A stretch of 64,000 bases of DNA from Solirubrobacterales bacterium. GTDB lineage: Bacteria > Actinomycetota > Thermoleophilia > Solirubrobacterales > 70-9. The DNA is taken from contig DATIOC010000043.1 of the NCBI GenBank assembly GCA_035473555.1, positions 73-64,072 on the forward strand, read 5' to 3'. The notes beneath the pieces are model-generated. The model was not told where the DNA came from. It ran no database searches and worked only from the letters and a program-made list of their open reading frames with translations. The position numbers and the translations under genes were made by a program. Each line of letters begins with the position of its first letter. Position 1 is the stretch's first letter. Shown piece after piece: positions 1,891 through 57,068 of the stretch.

Positions 1891-4272
1891 ATGGAGCAAG
1901 GGCTTTCCAACAAGGAGGCGGCAGCGCGGCTGCGCAAGCTCGGGCCGCCGGCCGAGACCTCCTCGCGCTCGCTGGCGAGCATCGTCGCCGGCAACGTCTT
2001 CACGCTCTTCAACGCGATCATCGGTGCCTTCTTCCTGCTCGACATCGGCCTCGGGCTCTACGCCGACGCGATCTTCGGCCTGATCGCCGTCGTCAACTCC
2101 AGCATCGGCATCTACCAGGAGAAGAAGGCGAAGGAAACGCTCGACGAAATCGCCGTCCTCGTCGCCCCCCAGGCCAAGGTCGTGCGCGAGGGCGAAGTGG
2201 TCGAGCTGCTGGCGAGCGAGGTCGTCCCCGGCGACGTCGTCCAGGTCGGGCCCGGCGACCAGCTGATCGCCGACGGCGAGGTGATCGCCTCGCGGGGGAT
2301 GACGATGGACGAGTCGCTGCTGACCGGCGAGGCAGACGGGATCCGCAAGGGCGAGGGCGACCGCGTCCTCTCCGGCTCCTTCTGCGTCTCGGGCTCGGGC
2401 CACTACCTGGTCGACGCGGTCCGTGAGGAGAGCTACGCGGGGCGCTTGGCGGGCGAGGCGAAGACCTTCCGCCACCCGCCCTCACCGCTGCAGGAGGAGG
2501 TCAACCGGGTGATCATCGCTTCGACCTACGTGATGGTGCCGCTGGCGATCGCCCTGCTGATCAGCTTCAAGGTCCGCGGCACCGACCTCACCGAGGCGGC
2601 GCAGACGGCGACCGCCGGCCTCGTGACCCTGATCCCCGAGGGCTTGGTGCTGCTGATGAGCGTCACCTTCGCGGTCGCGGCGATGCGGCTGGCGAAGCGC
2701 AACACGCTCGTCCAGCAGATGAGCGCGACCGAGAGCCTCGCCTCGGTCGACACGATCTGCGTCGACAAGACCGGGACGCTGACCGCGGGCGAGCTGCGGC
2801 TCTCCGGGGTCGAGTACGCCGAGGGGGTCGACCCCAAGTCGGGGGCGGCGGCGCTGGGGCGCTTCGCCGCCAGCGCCGGCAACCGCAACCAGACGCTGGA
2901 GACGATCGCCGCCGAGTTCCCCGGGAAAGCCGGCACGGTGCGCAGCGAGGTGCCGTTCTCTTCCGAGTGGAAGTGGAGCGGGGTCTCGCTCGACGGCACC
3001 GGCGAGGGCGCGACCTACGTCCTCGGGGCGCCGGACATCCTCGCCGAGGCCGGGGCGCTCTCGCTGCCGGCGGGGCTCGCCGCGAAGCTCGAGGAGGAGA
3101 CCGCGGCCGGCCGCCGGGTCGTCGCCTTCGGCCAGACGAGCGAGGCGCTGCCCGACGACCCCAGCGCCGCTGCGGCGCCGAAGATGCAGCCGCTGGCGCT
3201 GGTCGTGCTGGAGGAGACGCTGCGGCCCGACGCGGCGGAAACGATCGCCTACATGCGCGACCAGGAAGTCGACCTGAAGCTGATCTCCGGCGACGCGGCG
3301 GCGACGGTGACCGCGGTCGCCTACGCGGTCGGAGTGCCGCGGGACGCCGGGGTCGTCGAGGGACCGGACCTGCCGGAGGACGAGGAGCAGCTGGCGAAGG
3401 TCGCGATGGAGAACACGATCTTCTGCCGGATCAAGCCCGAGCAGAAGAAAGCCCTGGTCGGGGCGCTGGTCGCCGCCGGGCGCTACGTGGCGATGATCGG
3501 CGACGGGGTCAACGACGTGCCGGCGCTGAAGCGGGCACGGATGGCGGTGGCGATGGGCTCCGGCGCGCAGGTGACCAAAGGGGTCGCCGACGTCGTCCTG
3601 CTCAAAGACCAGTTCGCGCGGCTGCCCGAGGCGGTCGGCGAGGGCCGCCGGATCGCCCGCAACATCCACCGCCTCGGCCGCCTTTACCTGACCAAGACCG
3701 TCTACGCGGCGACCCTGATCCTGCTGGTCGCGGTCCCCGGCTTCGCCTTCCCGTTCCTGCCCCGCCACCTCACCCTGGCGGCGTTCCTGACGATCGGGAT
3801 CCCCTCCTTTGTCCTCGCCCTGCTGCCCTCCGACGGGCCGCTCTACCGCGGCCGGCTGCTGCGGGCGCTGGCGGCGTTCGCGGTCCCAGCCGGGCTGGCG
3901 ACGGCAATCGGCTCGATCGTCTCCTTCTTCCTCGTCGACACCCTCGCCGGGGCCAGCCTCGAAGCGGGTCGCACCGCGGCGACGACGACCCTGATCGTCC
4001 TCGGCCTCGCCTTCATCCTCCTGCTCGAGCGCGGCCCCGGCCGCGAGCACATCGCGATCCAGAGCAACATGCTGGCGATGGTCGCCGCCCTCGGCGCCGC
4101 CTTCGCCGGCATCCTCGCGATCCCCTTCCTGCGCGACTTCTTCGACATGGTCCTGCTCAGCGCGCCGGAATGGTTCCTGGCGCTGTTCTCGGCCGCGATG
4201 GGCCTGATCATCGCCAGCGGCCTATGGAAACTCCCTCAAATAGAACGATGGGAAGTTCCAGCGGGTGAATGA
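1891..4272 (+). CDS. Cation-transporting P-type ATPase (HAD superfamily, type II-like)
   Basis: In-frame part of ORF 589..4272. Motifs present: LTGEADG (TGE), PEGL in TM4 (LIPEGLVLL), the phosphorylation site CVDKTGTLT, and the hinge MIGDGVNDVPALK. Start taken at MEQGLSNKEAAARL (ATG 1891); ATG 1870 is an alternative. The part upstream of 1870 overlaps the LLM gene and is spurious. Confidence 0.9.
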   Translation: MEQGLSNKEAAARLRKLGPPAETSSRSLASIVAGNVFTLFNAIIGAFFLLDIGLGLYADAIFGLIAVVNSSIGIYQEKKAKETLDEIAVLVAPQAKVVREGEVVELLASEVVPGDVVQVGPGDQLIADGEVIASRGMTMDESLLTGEADGIRKGEGDRVLSGSFCVSGSGHYLVDAVREESYAGRLAGEAKTFRHPPSPLQEEVNRVIIASTYVMVPLAIALLISFKVRGTDLTEAAQTATAGLVTLIPEGLVLLMSVTFAVAAMRLAKRNTLVQQMSATESLASVDTICVDKTGTLTAGELRLSGVEYAEGVDPKSGAAALGRFAASAGNRNQTLETIAAEFPGKAGTVRSEVPFSSEWKWSGVSLDGTGEGATYVLGAPDILAEAGALSLPAGLAAKLEEETAAGRRVVAFGQTSEALPDDPSAAAAPKMQPLALVVLEETLRPDAAETIAYMRDQEVDLKLISGDAAATVTAVAYAVGVPRDAGVVEGPDLPEDEEQLAKVAMENTIFCRIKPEQKKALVGALVAAGRYVAMIGDGVNDVPALKRARMAVAMGSGAQVTKGVADVVLLKDQFARLPEAVGEGRRIARNIHRLGRLYLTKTVYAATLILLVAVPGFAFPFLPRHLTLAAFLTIGIPSFVLALLPSDGPLYRGRLLRALAAFAVPAGLATAIGSIVSFFLVDTLAGASLEAGRTAATTTLIVLGLAFILLLERGPGREHIAIQSNMLAMVAALGAAFAGILAIPFLRDFFDMVLLSAPEWFLALFSAAMGLIIASGLWKLPQIERWEVPAGE

Positions 4273-25189: not shown

Positions 25190-25311
25190 GGGCCTGTCGG
25201 TGGGGGTGTTCCCGGAGCACCTCCGCCGGCTGGCTGGTTTTACGGCTGCGCCCCAAACGCAATCGGGCCGGCTCCATGCTGAGTACCGGGAACACCCCCA
25301 CCGACAGGCCC
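25190..25311. repeat. 26-bp perfect inverted repeat with a 70-nt spacer (large palindromic element in a convergent intergenic gap)
   Basis: GGGCCTGTCGGTGGGGGTGTTCCCGG (25190-25215) and its exact reverse complement (25286-25311). It occupies most of the gap between the SBP gene stop (25176) and the MFS gene stop (25329). Confidence 0.85.
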
Positions 25312-35913: not shown

Positions 35914-36000
35914 GACGGCGCAGGCTAGCGAAGCCGCCTAAACGCCCTGGAAGTAGTCGATAACCCGCAACTTCCCTTGCAATTTGCGGGGATTGGAGGA

Positions 36001-36028
36001 GTCCGGGGGCCGCCGTCGACCCCCGGAC
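36001..36028 (-). terminator. 9-bp perfect GC hairpin (GTCCGGGGG-N10-CCCCCGGAC) downstream of the SHOCT gene
   Basis: Lies 12 nt past the stop at 36040. There is no U-tract. It shares the TCCGGGGG 8-mer with the MMPL palindromic elements. Confidence 0.35.
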
Positions 36029-36039
36029 CCGAAGCGCTT

Positions 36040-45991: not shown

Positions 45992-45999
45992 GCCAGCTT

Positions 46000-46079
46000 G
46001 GGGGCCGGGGGTACCTCCTCCAGACACTCAACATCGAGCCATTGGCGAGATGTGTCTGGGGGAGGTACCCCCGGCCCCC
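46000..46079. repeat. 28-bp (27/28) inverted repeat with a 24-nt loop; a G-rich palindromic element filling a convergent intergenic gap
   Basis: GGGGGCCGGGGGTACCTCCTCCAGACAC (46000-27) pairs with GTGTCTGGGGGAGGTACCCCCGGCCCCC (46052-79). It lies between the amt stop (45991) and the permease stop (46081). Confidence 0.85.
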
Positions 46080-46080
46080 C

Positions 46081-46844
46081 TTACGCCCTGAGCCTGTACC
46101 CCTTGCTGAACAGGCGGAGATTCACCAAGAAGATCGCCACAGTCGCCGCAGTCAGAGCGAGAAGCGAGAGCGGGATGCTGACTTCGGTGTAGCCGACGAA
46201 GCCGTAGCGGACGAGGTTGATCATGTAGTAGATCGGGTTGAAGTGGGTCAGCGTCTCGTAGGGCTGGGGCAGCAGCGCCGCCGAGTAGAAGACGCCGCCG
46301 AGGAAGATCAGCGGGGTCAGAACGAAGGTCTGGGCGAAGGCGACGTCGTCGAACTGCTCGGCGCGGACGCCGATCAGGACTCCGAGCTGGCTGAAGAAGA
46401 ACCCGACCAGGAAGAGCGACGGGATCAGGACCAGGACGTGGTCGACGGGCAGAGCGACCAGGATCACCGAGACGATGAAAGTCAGGACCGCGACGATCAG
46501 GCCGCGCACGAAGCCGCCGAGCGAGAAGGCGAGGAGCAGCTCGGCCGGCGATGCGGGCGAGGAGAGCTGGTCCTGGATCGCCCCCTGGAACTTCTGCTGG
46601 AGGATCGAGGAGGAGTTGTTGGAGAAGGCGTTGGTCGAGAAGGCCATCATGATCAGGCCGGGGATGACGAAGACGACGTAGTCGATCCCGTGCAGCTTGT
46701 CGATGCGGGAGCCCAGCGCCGCGCCAAAGACCGAGATGTAGAGGAAGGTTTCCAGCAGCGGCGCGCCGAGCGTCTGCTTCTTGATCTTCATGAAGCGGTT
46801 GATCTCGCGACGCCAGAGGGTCGCGAAGCGGATCTGGGCGGCGC

Positions 46845-48556: not shown

Positions 48557-49423
48557 ATGCCCGCGCCGCTGCTCGCCGTCGACACCCCTTCGATGCTGTT
48601 CCGCGCCTTCTACGCGCTGCCGAGCAAGATCGTCGGGCCGGACGGGCGGCCCGTGAACGCGCTGCTGGGGACGGCGAACCTGATCCTGCGCGAGGTCGAA
48701 GTCCACCAGCCTCGCGCCGTCGTCCTCTGCTTCGGCCCCGACGCGGCCGCCTACCGGACCGAGCTCTATCCCGCCTACCACGCCGAGCGCGAGGAGGCGA
48801 TGCCCGACGAGCTGCCGCACCAGTTCGCCGACGCGCGCCCGTTCTTCGAGGCGTTCGGCTGGACGGTCGCGGTTGCCGGGGACCTCGAGGCCGACGACCT
48901 GCTCGGCACCTACGCGAAGCTCGAGGCCGAGGCCGGCGGCCGGGCGCTGCTGCTGACCGGGGACCGCGACATGTACCAGTGCGCGAGCGAGGAGGTGACC
49001 GTGCTCTACGTCAAAACCGGAGGCGGCAAAGGCGCCGAAGAGGTCGGGCCGGCAGAGGTGCGCGAGCGCTACGGGATCGGCCCCGAGCTGGTGCCCGACT
49101 TCATCGCCCTGCGCGGCGACCCATCCGACGGGCTGCCGGGCGCCAAGGGCGTCGGCCCGAAGACCGCGGCCGAGCTGCTGAAGGCGCACGGCTCGCTGGA
49201 GGCGATCCTCGACGGCGCGATCCGCGAGCGGCGCCCGGCGCTGCGCGCGGCCTTGATCGAAGGCAAGGAGGACCTGCTCAAGTTCAAGGACATCGCGACG
49301 CTGCGCGACGCCAAGGTGAAGCGGCCGAAGGACCGCGCCACGGACTGGAGCGGCGCGGCCGAGGCGGCGAGGGAGCGCGGGATGAAAAGGCTCGCAGAGC
49401 GGTTGGAGAGTCAGGTCCAGTAG
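48557..49423 (+). CDS. 5'-3' exonuclease (FEN / Pol I N-terminal-domain family)
   Basis: ...LLAVDTPSMLFRAFYAL..., ...YHAER..., ...GDLEADDLLG..., ...LLTGDRDMYQ..., ...DGLPGAKGVGPKTAAELL (H3TH). Confidence 0.88.
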   Translation: MPAPLLAVDTPSMLFRAFYALPSKIVGPDGRPVNALLGTANLILREVEVHQPRAVVLCFGPDAAAYRTELYPAYHAEREEAMPDELPHQFADARPFFEAFGWTVAVAGDLEADDLLGTYAKLEAEAGGRALLLTGDRDMYQCASEEVTVLYVKTGGGKGAEEVGPAEVRERYGIGPELVPDFIALRGDPSDGLPGAKGVGPKTAAELLKAHGSLEAILDGAIRERRPALRAALIEGKEDLLKFKDIATLRDAKVKRPKDRATDWSGAAEAARERGMKRLAERLESQVQ

Positions 49424-49518
49424 GGGGTTCTCTCAACTTTTTCGTGATCGCCTGGAGCCGTCCGAGATGGGGAACCGCGAAAAAGTACAAGCCGTTCACC
49501 CCCTACTGGACCTGACTC
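49408..49518. repeat. 21-bp perfect inverted repeat with a 69-nt spacer that contains the last codons and stop codons of both convergent genes
   Basis: GAGTCAGGTCCAGTAGGGGGT (49408-28) and its exact reverse complement (49498-518). There is a nested repeat CTTTTTCG / CGAAAAAG. Both genes therefore end in ...SQVQ-stop. Confidence 0.85.
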
Positions 49519-51223: not shown

Positions 51224-51269
51224 CGCATCCGACTTTCACCCCACCCCGCTGTGGCGAAAGTCGGATGCG
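51224..51269. terminator. 14-bp perfect hairpin between convergent genes
   Basis: CGCATCCGACTTTC (51224-37) pairs with GAAAGTCGGATGCG (51256-69), with an 18-nt loop. Confidence 0.5.
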
Positions 51270-54863: not shown

Positions 54864-57068
54864 GTGGTCACCGGATCACGAGGACGATGGCTCGCGGTCG
54901 CGGTCTGGCTGCTGATCGGCGCCGCCGGGCTGTTCGCCCACGCCCGCATCGACGACGTCACCGCCGCCGGGCAGTCGAGCTTCCTCCCCGCCAACTCGGA
55001 ATCGACCCGGGCGCTCGACGCGCTGCAGCGGGTCTCCAACGGCGGCGAAGACGTGCCGGTGGTGATCGTCTTCGAACGCCACGGCGGCCTCAGCGACGCC
55101 GATCTGCGGGCGATCGGCCGGATCGGCGACGGTCTCGGCAAGCTCGAACTCGCCGGCGCAACGCCGATCGTCGACCCGTTCTCCGGCGAATACCGCAACG
55201 AACTGACCCAGGTGGCGCGGCTGGCAAAGGGGATCGGCCCGGTCTCGCAGGACGGCGAAGCGGCCCTGCTGGTGCTGGCGATCGACGCCCAGGACCGCGG
55301 CGCGGTCGTCAAAGGGGTCAGCCAGATCCGCCGCTACCTGCGGGCGCACGAACAACCGGGGGTCCACGCCTACGTCACCGGGCCGGGCGGGATCGCCGCC
55401 GACCTCGAGGCGATCGCCAGCGACGCCGCCCGCACCCTCCTCATCGCCACCTTAGGCCTCGTACTCCTCCTCCTGCTCCTCGTCTACCGAGCCCCGATCC
55501 TGGCTCTACTGCCGCTGCTGGTAGTCGGCCTCGCCTACCTGACCGCGATCGGCATCGCCTACCTCCTGATCAAGGCCGGCTGGATCACCGTCAACGCCGA
55601 GGGAACCATGCTCCTCCTGGTCCTCATCTTCGGAGCGGGGACGGATTACTCCCTTCTCCTGGTCCATAGATACCGGGAAGAGCTGGGCGCTGTAGGGGGT
55701 CCGGGGGGTCCCCTCCGTCACAAAGATGGGGAGGTTCCTCCGGGGACCCCCCGGACCCCCCTCGATCGCGCTGTTAGGGAGACGCGCCCAGCGCTGTTGG
55801 CGAGCGGTGGGACCGTGATCGCGGCGATGCTCGTCCTGCTCGTCGCGAATTTGCAGTCGACTCACTGGCTCGGGCCGGTGCTGGCAATCGGCATCGCAGT
55901 GATGCTGCTCGCTGCATTCACCCTGTTGCCAGCCCTGCTCTCCATCCTCGGAGACCGAGCTTTCTGGCCCGCAAGCCCCGCCTCTGGCGTGGGGCAGGGG
56001 GGTCCCCGGAGGAACCTCCCAAATCGTGACGGAGGGGACCCCCCTGCCCCGCGCCCAACCATCTGGGAACGAACCGCAGACCTGGTCCGCCGCCGCTCCG
56101 GCCGAATCATCATCGGCCTCCTAGCCCTGCTCCTCGTCCTCTCACTAGGCAACCTGACGAACCACGACACCCTCGGATTCGGCCAGGGAGTGACCCGGGC
56201 GACGAACTCCAGCCGCGGCACCGAAGCGCTGGAACGGCACTTTCCCGCCGGGTTGGGCGCACCGCTGACGGCGGTCGTCAAGGCCGAGGAGGCGCCGGCG
56301 GTGACGCGGGAGATGGAAAAGCTGGGCAACGTGCAGCTGACTCTGCCGGCGCCGGTCCCCGGCGACGCGGCCGAGGCGGTGATCCTCCTCGTCCTCCACG
56401 ACGACCCCTACGGCAACGAGGCCGAAGACGCGGTGGAAGAGATCCGCGAACGGCTGCACGCCGTGGCGCCCAGCGCCCTGCTCGGCGGCGTCCCGGTCGA
56501 GAACCTCGACGTCGAGGAAGCCAACGCGCGGGACACGAAGCTGATCGTGCCGCTGGTCCTGCTCGTCGTCGGCCTGATCCTGATCGCGGTGCTGCGGGCG
56601 CTGGTCGCGCCCGCCTACCTGATCGCGACCGTGGTCGCCTCCTTCGCCGCGACCCTTGGCCTCGCGACCTTCGCCTTCACCGAGGTCTTCCAGATGGCGG
56701 GCCTCGCCTTCAACCTCGAGCTGATGGCGTTCATCTTCCTCGTCGCCCTCGGGGTCGACTACAACATCTTCCTGATGACCCGGGCGCGCGAGGAGGCGGC
56801 CGTCCGCGGCACCCGCGAGGGCGTCCTCGCCGCCCTGGTCAGCACCGGCGGCGTCGTCACCGGCGCCGGCCTGATCCTCGCCGGCACCTTCGCCACCCTC
56901 ACCCTGCTGCCGCTCGAGGAGCTGGTCCAGGTCGGCGCCACCGTGGCCGTGGGCGTCCTCTTGGACACCTTCCTGGTCCGCGCCCTCCTGATCCCCGCAA
57001 TCACCTACCGCCTCGGCGACCGCGCCTGGTGGCCAGGGCGCCCCGGCTGGCGGAGCCGGCGTTTTTAG
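54864..57068 (+). CDS. MMPL-family (RND-like) transporter carrying two in-frame palindromic-element insertions
   Basis: 734 aa and 12 TM-type segments in two halves, with GTDYSLLLVHRYREEL and GVDYNIFLMTRAREE motifs. Confidence 0.88.
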   Translation: MVTGSRGRWLAVAVWLLIGAAGLFAHARIDDVTAAGQSSFLPANSESTRALDALQRVSNGGEDVPVVIVFERHGGLSDADLRAIGRIGDGLGKLELAGATPIVDPFSGEYRNELTQVARLAKGIGPVSQDGEAALLVLAIDAQDRGAVVKGVSQIRRYLRAHEQPGVHAYVTGPGGIAADLEAIASDAARTLLIATLGLVLLLLLLVYRAPILALLPLLVVGLAYLTAIGIAYLLIKAGWITVNAEGTMLLLVLIFGAGTDYSLLLVHRYREELGAVGGPGGPLRHKDGEVPPGTPRTPLDRAVRETRPALLASGGTVIAAMLVLLVANLQSTHWLGPVLAIGIAVMLLAAFTLLPALLSILGDRAFWPASPASGVGQGGPRRNLPNRDGGDPPAPRPTIWERTADLVRRRSGRIIIGLLALLLVLSLGNLTNHDTLGFGQGVTRATNSSRGTEALERHFPAGLGAPLTAVVKAEEAPAVTREMEKLGNVQLTLPAPVPGDAAEAVILLVLHDDPYGNEAEDAVEEIRERLHAVAPSALLGGVPVENLDVEEANARDTKLIVPLVLLVVGLILIAVLRALVAPAYLIATVVASFAATLGLATFAFTEVFQMAGLAFNLELMAFIFLVALGVDYNIFLMTRAREEAAVRGTREGVLAALVSTGGVVTGAGLILAGTFATLTLLPLEELVQVGATVAVGVLLDTFLVRALLIPAITYRLGDRAWWPGRPGWRSRRF
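55695..55760 (+). repeat. Palindromic element copy A (66 nt, 19-bp perfect arms) inside the MMPL coding sequence
   Basis: GGGGGTCCGGGGGGTCCCC (55695-713) pairs with GGGGACCCCCCGGACCCCC (55742-60). It starts on a codon boundary and encodes GGPGGPLRHKDGEVPPGTPRTP. Confidence 0.85.
55991..56050 (-). repeat. Palindromic element copy B (60 nt, 17-bp perfect arms), the inverted counterpart of copy A, inside the MMPL coding sequence
   Basis: GGGGCAGGGGGGTCCCC (55991-56007) pairs with GGGGACCCCCCTGCCCC (56034-50). The reverse complement of its interior (TCCGTCAC-GATTT-GGGAGGTTCCTCC) matches the interior of copy A. Confidence 0.85.

Follow-up and report, generated by a model that had tools for sequence, protein, structure and literature searches.

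Two oppositely oriented copies of a Solirubrobacterales hairpin element lie in frame within an MMPL-family transporter gene

The best-known in-frame palindromic elements are those of Rickettsia (PMC10969869), the Rickettsia palindromic elements (RPEs; Ogata et al. 2000, summarised in PMC10969869), which are about 150 bp in length, AT-rich and present in tens of copies, with a conserved peptide per family. The REPINs, which RAYT transposases mobilise, are extragenic and over-represented, occur at tens to hundreds per genome with family-conserved arms, and lie near a RAYT gene (Bertels & Rainey 2011, PMC3116915; PMC3337134). In addition, template switching at quasipalindromes is known to bring the two halves of an imperfect inverted repeat closer to full complementarity (Ripley 1982; Lovett laboratory, PMC7202029). 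Here we describe a hairpin element of Solirubrobacterales, two copies of which lie in an MMPL-family transporter gene of the window (the whole 64-kb stretch of DNA that was analysed); full-text literature searches returned no description of this element.

The host open reading frame matched Pfam MMPL (PF03176) with an E value of 9.8e-104 (about 1e-103), its closest solved relatives were MmpL4 and MmpL5, its orthologues carry the name Solirubrobacterales MMPL, and its neighbours encode a cupredoxin and a pyridoxal-dependent decarboxylase. The 120 closest orthologue proteins were all full-length MMPL proteins of 689-749 aa. Site A lies in the loop after the RYREE motif and site B is the linker joining the two transporter halves. 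We take both to be cytoplasmic loops by the established MmpL3 topology, with site A as the TM4-TM5 loop, and this assignment would agree with a sequence-only reading of the window, which had placed both copies in loops. The features of the locus are as follows.

54864 to 57068, + strand: MMPL-family (RND-type) transporter gene, 734 aa, open reading frame intact
55695 to 55760, + strand: copy A, sense (the TCCGTC strand is the mRNA strand), 66 nt, translated as GGPGGPLRHKDGEVPPGTPRTP
55695 to 55713, + strand: 5' arm of copy A, GGGGGTCCGGGGGGTCCCC, 19 nt, 100% complementary to 55742-55760
55714 to 55741, + strand: apical module of copy A, with TCCGTCAC at 55714-55721, the spacer AAAGATGG at 55722-55729 and GGAGGTTCCTCC at 55730-55741
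55742 to 55760, + strand: 3' arm of copy A, GGGGACCCCCCGGACCCCC, which pairs with the 5' arm and leaves an interior of 28 nt
55991 to 56050, - strand: copy B, antisense, 60 nt (70 nt with the extended arms, 55986-56055), translated as GQGGPRRNLPNRDGGDPPAP
55991 to 56007 and 56034 to 56050, - strand: arms of copy B, 17 nt, perfectly paired
56008 to 56033, - strand: apical module of copy B, reading TCCGTCAC-GATTTG-GGAGGTTCCTCC on the - strand

When the pairing was recomputed, the coordinates, sequences and perfect arms of 19 and 17 bp were all as the sequence-only reading had given them, and the peptides that it quoted were right, both copies (66 and 60 nt) being in frame and free of stops within the intact gene. 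The arms of copy B reach 22 nt with one mismatch (55986-56007 with 56034-56055), and on the + strand its module reads GGAGGAACCTCC (56008-56019), CAAATC (56020-56025) and GTGACGGA (56026-56033). That A and B are one element in opposite orientations, as had been claimed, was confirmed by two cross-copy inverted repeats, one of 30 nt (93% identity) and one of 25 nt (92%), and by the core pattern of the family, which matched copy A on the + strand and copy B on the - strand. A covariance model of the family scored copy A at 90.2 bits (55692-55763, + strand) and copy B at 79.1 bits (55986-56055, - strand). Copy A folds at -62.5 kcal/mol (z-score -5.7) and copy B at -60.8 kcal/mol (z-score -7.0); the sequence GGGGACCCCCC occurred four times in the window against 0.18 expected, a count reached in 0 of 100 shuffles; and only eight hairpins with a perfect stem of at least 13 bp were found in the 64 kb, so that by all three measures the two copies stand beyond chance. 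Seven of the 22 codons of copy A end in A or T, against a GC3 of 0.88 for the host gene. The boundary of copy A falls between GTA and GGGGG, and copy B is without a GTAG head. Three further ideas about the copies were rejected: a second small apical hairpin (CCGUC/GAUGG), predicted in copy A, is not conserved across spacers; an internal translation start at site B would have to use the sole GTG, which is out of frame; and the argument that a G-rich 5' arm shows loop and arms to be co-oriented was dropped, being trivially true of any perfect palindrome.

The family to which both copies belong is a hairpin of ~60-75 bp and about 74% GC, with arms of 18-20 bp, each of which holds its own short palindrome GGGG(A/T)CCCC. 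The arms enclose an asymmetric apical module, CCCC-TCCGTCRC-N6-9-GGAGGYTCCTCC-GGGG, with coupling of R to Y in 110 of 110 copies. A scan of 185,579 species genomes with the exact pattern returned 102 stretches, all from Solirubrobacterales, Thermoleophilia or 'uncultured Actinomycetes' assemblies; viral contigs held no copies, and about 330 kb from distant MMPL loci likewise held none. That the loop is invariant across loci L008-L109 is partly by construction, since these were found with the loop pattern; among copies found without it, CCTCC was changed to CCTAC or CCTGC, and one loop had decayed. A search of Rfam with 55500-56250 gave just generic miRNA-hairpin matches, all far below their gathering scores.

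Grouping the copies by flanking sequence gave 20 sites, and the element, far from being confined to this gene, occupies at least 20 loci, both in frame and intergenic. The identical architecture recurs in more than 100 independent assemblies, which disposes of the objection, raised in the sequence-only reading, that it might be an assembly artefact. Of 113 copies, 85 are intragenic and in frame, as are both copies of the window, and the in-frame sites number six in five host genes, namely MMPL (two sites), the linker of an HTH-TM protein, FO synthase, the linker of a NifU_N-MnmA fusion, and CysRS, where the copy sits between the catalytic and DALR domains; in all five, the element is at a linker or domain boundary. 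The single frame exception (L012) has a 1-nt imbalance in a G run, and read-through is implied by the intact frame and the absence of stops in nearly all the intragenic copies. Most of the intergenic copies examined adjoin a gene end, typically 0-25 nt past the stop codon. By the strict pattern there were 1-5 copies per assembly, with 1 in each of three roughly 2.6-Mb chromosomes, and the sensitive covariance model added just 1 more in 745 kb and another 3 in 482 kb. Such a low copy number counts against a proliferating repeat.

Two other places in the window had been put forward as related sequences, 46000-46079 and 36001-36028. The first corresponds to the following feature.

45997 to 46082, no strand assigned: intergenic palindrome between convergent genes, not a member of the family; G-rich arm style similar, interior unrelated

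This palindrome scored 39 and 37 bits on the two strands with the family covariance model, which equals the wrong-strand score of true family copies (38-42 bits), and we therefore place it outside the family: it shares the arm style and lacks the core. A palindrome of this type lies between ammonium-transporter and ABC-2 genes in L001, L002 and L007, and 86-nt matches to it were found in L002 (2910-2995), L001 (3043-3128), L004 (587-672) and L007 (3305-3390). The second was rejected as a family relative, 35995-36034 scoring a non-significant 13 bits (E about 1) with the same model.

Alignment with orthologues, proposed earlier as a check, showed the two segments to be lineage-specific additions. 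Both are absent from MMPL homologues at about 40% identity and from the solved MmpL4 (16 gap residues at site A), the best stems at the same sites of more distant MMPL genes were 6-9 bp with one mismatch allowed, and close orthologues differ, at both sites, in whether they have the segment. Among the 120 closest orthologues, site A showed a patchy mixture of sense, antisense, other-family and short forms, and many orthologues were hairpin-free there. The ancestral state of site A is a segment of ~13 aa, as in distant MMPLs, so that the 5-aa forms are secondary deletions. At site B, a palindrome-type segment was present in most of the 87 orthologues with a readable site, the families differing, and short forms, which resemble deletion remnants, were found just in P0113, P0102 and the partial P0084. 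The site-B alleles of L003 and P0102 were considered as 'empty' pre-insertion states and rejected as such, since the part that codes for the 3' arm (DPRP) is still present in both, which makes them deletion derivatives; for the same reason, we ceased to read the outer arms as inverted copies of the target flank. No target-site duplication was definable from the comparison of filled and empty sites.

These alleles also bear on the proposal of the sequence-only reading that recombination between inverted A and B flips the intervening 55761-55990 and so switches the transporter off and on. The two copies of the window lie in inverted orientation at a distance of 230 bp, with 25-30 nt in common at 92-93% identity, as such a switch would need; however, this shared homology is very short and the inverted arrangement is not conserved, A and B being in direct orientation in L002, L033, L064 and L066, reduced to a single copy in L005 and L007, and both missing in L003. 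Moreover, other palindrome families occupy one of the sites in many species, no inverted allele of the intervening segment was seen among the orthologues examined, and neither adjacent gene encodes a recombinase. We consider a switch of this kind extremely improbable.

Across the family, the arms vary freely in sequence while their pairing is kept: 97.5% of cells were paired, compared to 77% in shuffles and 43-65% when partners were slid, two-sided changes were found in 227 cells compared to 49 +/- 6 in shuffles, and double changes occurred at 15 of the 19 arm pairs. Silent sites were compared in five orthologue pairs that were retrieved by protein, independently of the element pattern. Third positions differed at 6 of 104 inside the element and at 133 of 350 in flanking codons (Fisher p = 7e-12); silent positions in the element change about six times more slowly than in neighbouring codons, which indicates that the element is not neutral filler. 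The dip in divergence was limited to the element, adjacent 10-codon windows differing at 5-10 of 30 nt, and with the flanks so divergent, recombination tracts were rejected as the source of the conservation.

If the copies were instead purely selfish, unconstrained insertions of the RPE or MITE type, their apparent conservation would reflect recent transfer or re-insertion at the same site. The patchy distribution on the orthologue tree is what such insertions would leave, and so are the unrelated palindrome families that occupy both MMPL loops in other species, the bimodal divergence of alleles, which are either near-identical or wholly different (for example, the window and L004 at site B, or three CysRS alleles), and the comparison of L057 with L096, in which orientation flips and coupled R/Y and spacer changes appear on identical arms. 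The sharp boundary of similarity at the immediate flanks, however, makes ordinary recombination tracts unlikely, and the arms are site-specific, so that no other locus of the same genome could have supplied a site-A copy. Very low copy number also speaks against this reading, as does the fact that no mobilising gene was seen: no open reading frame in the 0.96 Mb of retrieved DNA matched RAYT or IS200 TnpA in tblastn searches with approximate queries, a weak match in L042 having been set aside because its open reading frame was read by eye as an RpiR-type regulator. We therefore regard neutral selfish insertion as quite doubtful. Element-specific replacement or homing could mimic the bimodal conservation pattern.

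On the mRNA strand, the in-frame stems contained 14 G.U pairs, 18 A.C and 10 other mismatches against 1182 Watson-Crick pairs, and G.T was rarer than other mismatches overall; this absence of an mRNA-strand bias points to constraint at the DNA level. The same counts weigh on a role of the hairpin in cis on the mRNA, where it could slow the ribosome for folding or membrane insertion, serve as an RNase III target, or act as a translation-sensitive intragenic terminator, and where any strong hairpin would serve. In line with such a role, the RNA is predicted to fold at -59 to -62.5 kcal/mol whichever strand is taken, and the host genes all carry the element at linkers or domain boundaries. In addition, site B holds a palindrome-type segment in most readable orthologues, and CysRS has a hypervariable segment of 27-37 aa at one position in 120 of 120 orthologues, palindromic in all three DNAs that were read; the persistent occupancy of these two positions suggests that some hairpin is kept there. 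Nevertheless, G.U was not preferred over A.C, a U-tract is missing from the tails that follow the hairpins (CTCGATCG and GCGCCCAA), and a terminator and promoter scan found nothing, with 0 terminator-like sites in 55300-56400. Nor would the importance of a stem alone explain why the loop module recurs across sites. Site A is hairpin-free in many orthologues, and intergenic copies exist too. A cis-acting mRNA hairpin is in our view unlikely.

The inserted peptides themselves might be what selection keeps, as functional loops or linkers, with the palindromic DNA incidental. The peptide PSVAKDGEAPPG of the HTH-TM protein recurs in many species, the segments are in linkers, where length may matter, and the CysRS segment always stays within its narrow range of lengths. 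Against this, site B nucleotides are read in three different frames among orthologues and both orientations were found at site A and in FO synthase, so that the same DNA gives unrelated peptides at one site. Third positions are the most conserved, arm peptides vary freely with DNA pairing kept, and the segment is absent from site A in many orthologues and lost or truncated at site B in three. Selection on the peptides is thus very improbable.

On balance, we incline to the reading that A and B are opposite copies of a Solirubrobacterales hairpin element of mobile-like origin that is constrained as a DNA palindrome. An origin like that of a repeat or mobile element is suggested by its presence at many unrelated loci, its gain and loss among close relatives, its occurrence in either orientation at one site and its replacement by unrelated palindromes where it would otherwise sit. 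Inside genes, the element would survive only where the protein tolerates 20-22 extra residues, that is, in cytoplasmic loops and inter-domain linkers, and an in-frame copy is presumably translated into a Gly/Pro/Arg-rich loop. Purifying constraint would bear on the element DNA at all three codon positions and alike on both strands; because the constraint looks equal on both strands, we infer that it is the palindromic DNA, folded into a hairpin or cruciform, that acts. This fold would be recognised by a structure-specific protein, for instance the enzyme that mobilises the element, and the perfect arms would be kept by hairpin-templated (template-switch) correction. Template switching by itself would not account for the slow divergence between species, so a selective agent would be needed beside it. 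We do not think that the element acts as an mRNA signal or as an inversion switch.

A more tentative possibility, which we hold to be less than probable, is that the copies form a small, order-wide set of functional DNA (or RNA) hairpin modules in coding sequence, selected at silent sites and read by a dedicated factor. On this account, a sequence-free stem of 18-20 bp may carry the conserved asymmetric apical module, within which R and Y may be in contact: the RC of a 17-nt bulge would pair with the GY of a GYUC tetraloop. Such modules may be kept in the linkers of housekeeping genes (MMPL, CysRS, FO synthase and IscU-MnmA), and may be exchangeable with other hairpin families.

These observations extend the phenomenon of in-frame palindromic elements from Rickettsia to free-living, 70%-GC soil Actinomycetota. 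The very low copy number, co-varying arms, coupled loop module, reuse of the same loops by unrelated hairpins and silent-site conservation are not predicted by the view of such elements as selfish DNA that protein loops tolerate. Should the constraint be real, the coding sequences of these bacteria would hold a second, DNA-level signal inside protein linkers, which would be relevant to the evolution of overlapping codes and to gene annotation, and would bear on the origin of hypervariable linkers in essential enzymes such as CysRS.

Compared to the systems described so far, the element is most readily likened to the RPEs, as the sequence-only reading had done. This analogy holds as a description, given the lineage-specific additions, the polymorphic orthologues and the spread over at least 20 loci. 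In both cases short, lineage-specific palindromic repeats occur between genes and also in frame within unrelated protein genes, often ones with housekeeping roles, the added peptide falls at positions compatible with the fold, and presence or absence differs among orthologues. The analogy fails where it implies a simple selfish repeat, from which the low copy number, the recurrent apical module and the silent-site conservation set the element apart. In contrast to the RPEs, the present element is 60-75 bp in length and about 74% GC, with 1-5 copies per genome, and it is read in several frames and both orientations with no single conserved peptide. Its arms vary between sites while the apical module recurs, and it is more conserved than adjacent silent sites. 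The two share no sequence similarity, the present hosts belong to the phylum Actinomycetota, and no Rfam match reaches its gathering score.

With REPs and REPINs, the element shares two inverted GC-rich units, which give a long hairpin in single-stranded DNA or RNA, and long vertical persistence. REP sequences have a conserved 5' GTAG head, and several intergenic copies of the present element start with GTAGGG and end with CCCTAC, which is reminiscent of that head; in 11 of the 20 site clusters TAGG marked the boundary of the arm, but the TAG there frequently belongs to the stop codon that ends the upstream gene. The present copies differ from REPINs in being mostly intragenic and in frame, low in number, and unlike one another in their arms from site to site. 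This difference of arms between sites, together with the lack of a visible target-site duplication, also separates them from MITEs, the derivatives of DDE transposons. No T/U tract follows the hairpin as in an intrinsic terminator, and with an unconserved pair, no inverted allele seen and no recombinase among the neighbours, the locus does not resemble an invertible DNA switch. Template switching is similar in that a DNA-level process accounts for the two-sided arm changes, the few G.T intermediates and the absence of strand bias. It is, however, a mutational mechanism and no element family, and explains complementarity but neither the slow divergence nor the recurrent loop. Finally, a 2014 study by Lang and colleagues reportedly described yeast mitochondrial genes with mobile GC clusters and with 'byp' inserts, which are bypassed in translation. 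The byps, like the present element, are short, GC-rich, hairpin-forming mobile inserts within protein-coding genes; whereas the ribosome passes over byps, which are therefore under no need to preserve the frame, the intragenic copies described here are nearly all frame-keeping and stop-free.

Repeat analysis and translation of the open reading frame bore out what the sequence-only reading had said of two palindromic copies in the MMPL transporter gene, namely their coordinates, arms, opposite orientation, in-frame status and quoted peptides. The host protein, whose nearest solved relatives are MmpL4, MmpL5 and MmpL3, contains both copies, and neither adds a stop.

54864-57068, + strand: host gene, full-length MMPL transporter (734 aa, Pfam E ~1e-103)
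55695-55760, + strand: copy A, perfect 19-bp arms, 28-nt interior, 66 nt in total
55991-56050, - strand: copy B, perfect 17-bp arms (22 bp when one mismatch is allowed), 26-nt interior, 60 nt in total

Since inverted repeats join the copies (30 nt at 93% and 25 nt at 92%) and a core-pattern search matched copy A on the + strand and copy B on the - strand, copy B is copy A inverted. A chance origin is excluded by the excess of GGGGACCCCCC (4 occurrences, 0.18 expected), by fold z-scores of -5.7 and -7.0, by the rarity of hairpins with perfect stems of at least 13 bp (only eight in the 64-kb window) and by the short best stems (6-9 bp, one mismatch allowed) in the equivalent regions of more distant MMPL genes.

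All of the 120 closest proteins (77-100% identity) are MMPLs of Solirubrobacterales genome assemblies, and seven orthologous loci share the gene order cupredoxin gene, MMPL, pyridoxal-dependent decarboxylase gene. Orthologues with and without a segment were found both at site A, the loop after the RYREE motif, and at site B, the linker between the two transporter halves.

States of the two MMPL sites (L numbers are retrieved loci of related genomes)
Site A: element, sense (TCCGTC strand equals mRNA strand)
Site A: element, antisense (L002, L005)
Site A: other palindrome with 21-27 bp arms, GGGAGCCGGGGGTGGGGCTCG... (GSRGWGSPDPP..PPSPTPGSP family; L006, L114, L116)
Site A: segment of 11-13 aa
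Site A: segment of 5 aa
Site B: element, antisense, in three different reading frames depending on species
Site B: second unrelated palindrome, ATCGCGTGGTTCCTTT...AAAGGAACCACGCGAT, peptide RGSF..KEPRD (L046, L112, L114, L116, L123)
Site B: palindrome, decayed
Site B: deletion remnants, rare

Two other in-frame palindrome families thus share the same two loops with the element, and the RGSF..KEPRD family has arms conserved with compensatory changes and a free loop. On a neighbour-joining tree the site states are scattered patchily; the element has been gained, lost, flipped and replaced. Palindromes are missing from both sites in MMPL homologues at ~40% identity, where site A holds ~13 aa and site B ~12-16 aa, and the window protein has 16 residues more than MmpL4 at site A. 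Both segments are therefore lineage-specific additions. In L012 (2106-2178), the MMPL frame shifts by one base within the element, where the 5' arm has five G and the 3' arm six C; the shift may stem from misassembly, mark a pseudogene or reflect slippage in a G run, which could switch the gene off. The inverted arrangement of copies A and B had been read as a possible on/off inversion switch, which is not supported, as the inverted pair is not kept among orthologues, direct-orientation pairs occur, and no inverted allele was seen among the orthologues examined; nor does the element class as an invertible switch.

Searching one genome per species for the exact pattern of the apical module returned 102 stretches, all from Solirubrobacterales, Thermoleophilia or 'uncultured Actinomycetes' assemblies, and no copy was found in the viral contigs searched. 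The family sample of 111 copies (110 distinct) shows a common plan of 18-20 bp arms, in which four inner pairs are C-G and the remaining arm sequence is site-specific, enclosing an apical module of TCCGTCRC, a spacer of 6-9 nt and GGAGGYTCCTCC. Flanking-sequence clustering gave 20 sites, in-frame and intergenic, and the element is therefore not unique to the MMPL gene.

Distribution of the family by site
MMPL: 37 copies, the two window copies included
HTH-TM protein, Pro-rich linker: 25 copies, all sense
FO synthase (CofG/CofH fusion): 14 copies, both orientations
NifU_N-MnmA fusion, linker: 8 copies
CysRS, between the catalytic and DALR domains: 1 copy
15 small clusters: intergenic for the most part

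The hairpin element is thus lineage-specific and present at many loci, and its in-frame copies occupy permissive loops and linkers. Most intergenic copies start 0-25 nt past a stop codon, and often they separate two convergent genes. Those of L041, L071, L084, L107, L050, L103 and L018 have (G)TAGGG at one end and CCCTA(C) at the other, and the TAG often doubles as the stop codon of the upstream gene; the boundary represents a REP-like GTAG terminus or else an element inserted at the very 3' end of a coding sequence. A covariance model made from 48 copies scored copy A at 90.2 bits and copy B at 79.1 bits when each was read in its own orientation, against 38-42 bits for the opposite strand. 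Across 745 kb of flanking DNA it added only one copy; in 482 kb of protein-retrieved loci it added three (two upstream of cysS plus a decayed one in frame in CysRS), and it found none in the distant-taxon loci. Copy number is therefore low, ~1-5 per genome, and each of three complete chromosomes has one copy.

The arms co-vary, and the nucleotides of the element are constrained. Arm cells are paired in 97.5% of cases; column shuffling lowers this to 77% and sliding the partners to 43-65%. In all, 227 cells are changed on both sides (49 +/- 6 in shuffles), with double changes at 15 of the 19 arm pairs. As examples, CCGG/CCGG at site A in the window is CAAG/CTTG in L001, and GGGGTCCCC became GGGGACCCC in L004. 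Because loop invariance among pattern-retrieved loci arises by construction, the loop was compared in protein-retrieved loci instead, where the module head and tail differ at 0-3 of 20 positions and the gene's fourfold-degenerate sites at 0.20-0.40. Loop variants do appear in pattern-independent copies: in those upstream of cysS (L110, L111), CCTCC has become CCTAC or CCTGC, both missed by the exact pattern, and the CysRS copy of L111 has a decayed loop. Among five roughly independent orthologue pairs sharing the element, differences at third codon positions number 6/104 within it and 133/350 in flanks of 35 codons each side (Fisher p = 7e-12); over all codon positions the counts are 19/312 and 176/1050, respectively. 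The dip is limited to the element, with differences at up to 10/30 nt in the neighbouring windows of 10 codons. Codon preference is ruled out as the cause by the A/T-ending codons of copy A (7/22) in a gene with GC3 of 0.88, and protein-level selection by the reading of identical nucleotides in three frames and two orientations. Conservation is bimodal, alleles being near-identical or wholly different (window and L004 at site B; three CysRS alleles).

Within the apical module, TCCGTCAC was always accompanied by GGAGGT (30 copies) and TCCGTCGC by GGAGGC (80 copies), with zero exceptions and the same coupling in 48/48 covariance-model copies. Both states occur inside at least 6 site clusters, even on identical arms (L057 and L096). 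In the RNAalifold structure, R is located in a 17-nt bulge and Y belongs to the GYUC loop that caps an apical hairpin, GGAG/CUCC. The coupling may reflect a contact of two bases (RC with GY) or, alternatively, replacement of the loop as a whole.

That the hairpin serves as an mRNA signal is an attractive explanation, as a palindrome-type segment from one of three families occupies site B in most orthologues with a readable site, and a hypervariable segment of 27-37 aa lies between the catalytic and DALR domains of CysRS in 120/120 closest orthologues. This segment is palindromic in 3/3 DNAs read (L061 2080-2151; L110 and L111 ~3970-4060), each time as another allele or family: that of L110 has 27-bp arms and that of L111 is a decayed copy of the MMPL-element family. 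A selected mRNA hairpin is expected to accept G.U and reject A.C. However, stem mismatches of in-frame copies comprise 14 mRNA-strand G.U, 18 A.C and 10 others (1182 Watson-Crick pairs), the loop recurs, and terminator features are absent, which also rules out an intrinsic terminator. Since G.U is not favoured over A.C, the symmetry points to constraint at the level of DNA rather than mRNA.

Further palindromes were noted. In L110 (2900-2971) and L111 (2898-2969), a family copy lies right after the upstream gene's stop, ~30 nt ahead of the cysS start codon. An ORF of L076 (722-1360, - strand), CofE-like as read by eye, contains GVGVGGQQRGGSGDPHPRP, similar to the palindrome family in the L110 CysRS, and may represent one more hairpin inserted in frame, here into a gene of the F420 pathway. 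The window has these other palindromes:

25190-25311: perfect palindrome, 26-bp arms
49408-49518: perfect palindrome, 21-bp arms
51224-51269: perfect palindrome, 14-bp arms
36001-36028: perfect palindrome, 9-10 bp arms
45997-46082: 86-nt palindrome, matching L001 3043-3128, L002 2910-2995, L004 587-672 and L007 3305-3390

The first four are all intergenic, mostly between convergent genes, and lack the MMPL-element core. The 86-nt palindrome, which in L001, L002 and L007 lies between an ammonium-transporter gene and a convergent ABC-2 gene, scores ~35-40 bits with the family model on both of its strands, reflecting arm style only. Of the kinship proposed for 46000-46079 and 36001-36028, the shared arm style of the former stands, but neither has the core. 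The genome holds several unrelated hairpin families.

We propose that the inserted segment is translated and that the element functions or is preserved as a palindrome in DNA, its arms perhaps held perfect by hairpin-templated template switching (PMC7202029) and its apical module possibly bound by a structure-specific protein. Template switching accounts for arm complementarity but not for the slow between-species divergence, so selection or element-specific homing is required. Approximate RAYT/IS200 TnpA queries found no transposase in 0.96 Mb of retrieved DNA, and comparison of filled and empty MMPL sites found no target-site duplication; a MITE is ruled out, as conserved terminal repeats and target-site duplication are both absent.

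Full-text literature searches returned no account of elements of this kind from Solirubrobacterales or Actinobacteria. The earlier interpretation is partly supported: the switch falls, while the analogy with Rickettsia palindromic elements (RPE) holds, the orthologue alignment showing lineage-specific, polymorphic segments. RPE are in-frame selfish palindromes and come nearest to the Solirubrobacterales element by description (PMC10969869), but it differs from them in sequence, host and copy number and breaks the single-peptide rule, so it is not one of them. REPINs, inverted REP doublets forming a hairpin, are nearest by architecture (PMC3116915); it does not belong to these either, as REPINs are extragenic and over-represented, while most copies of the Solirubrobacterales element lie inside genes and copy number is low.
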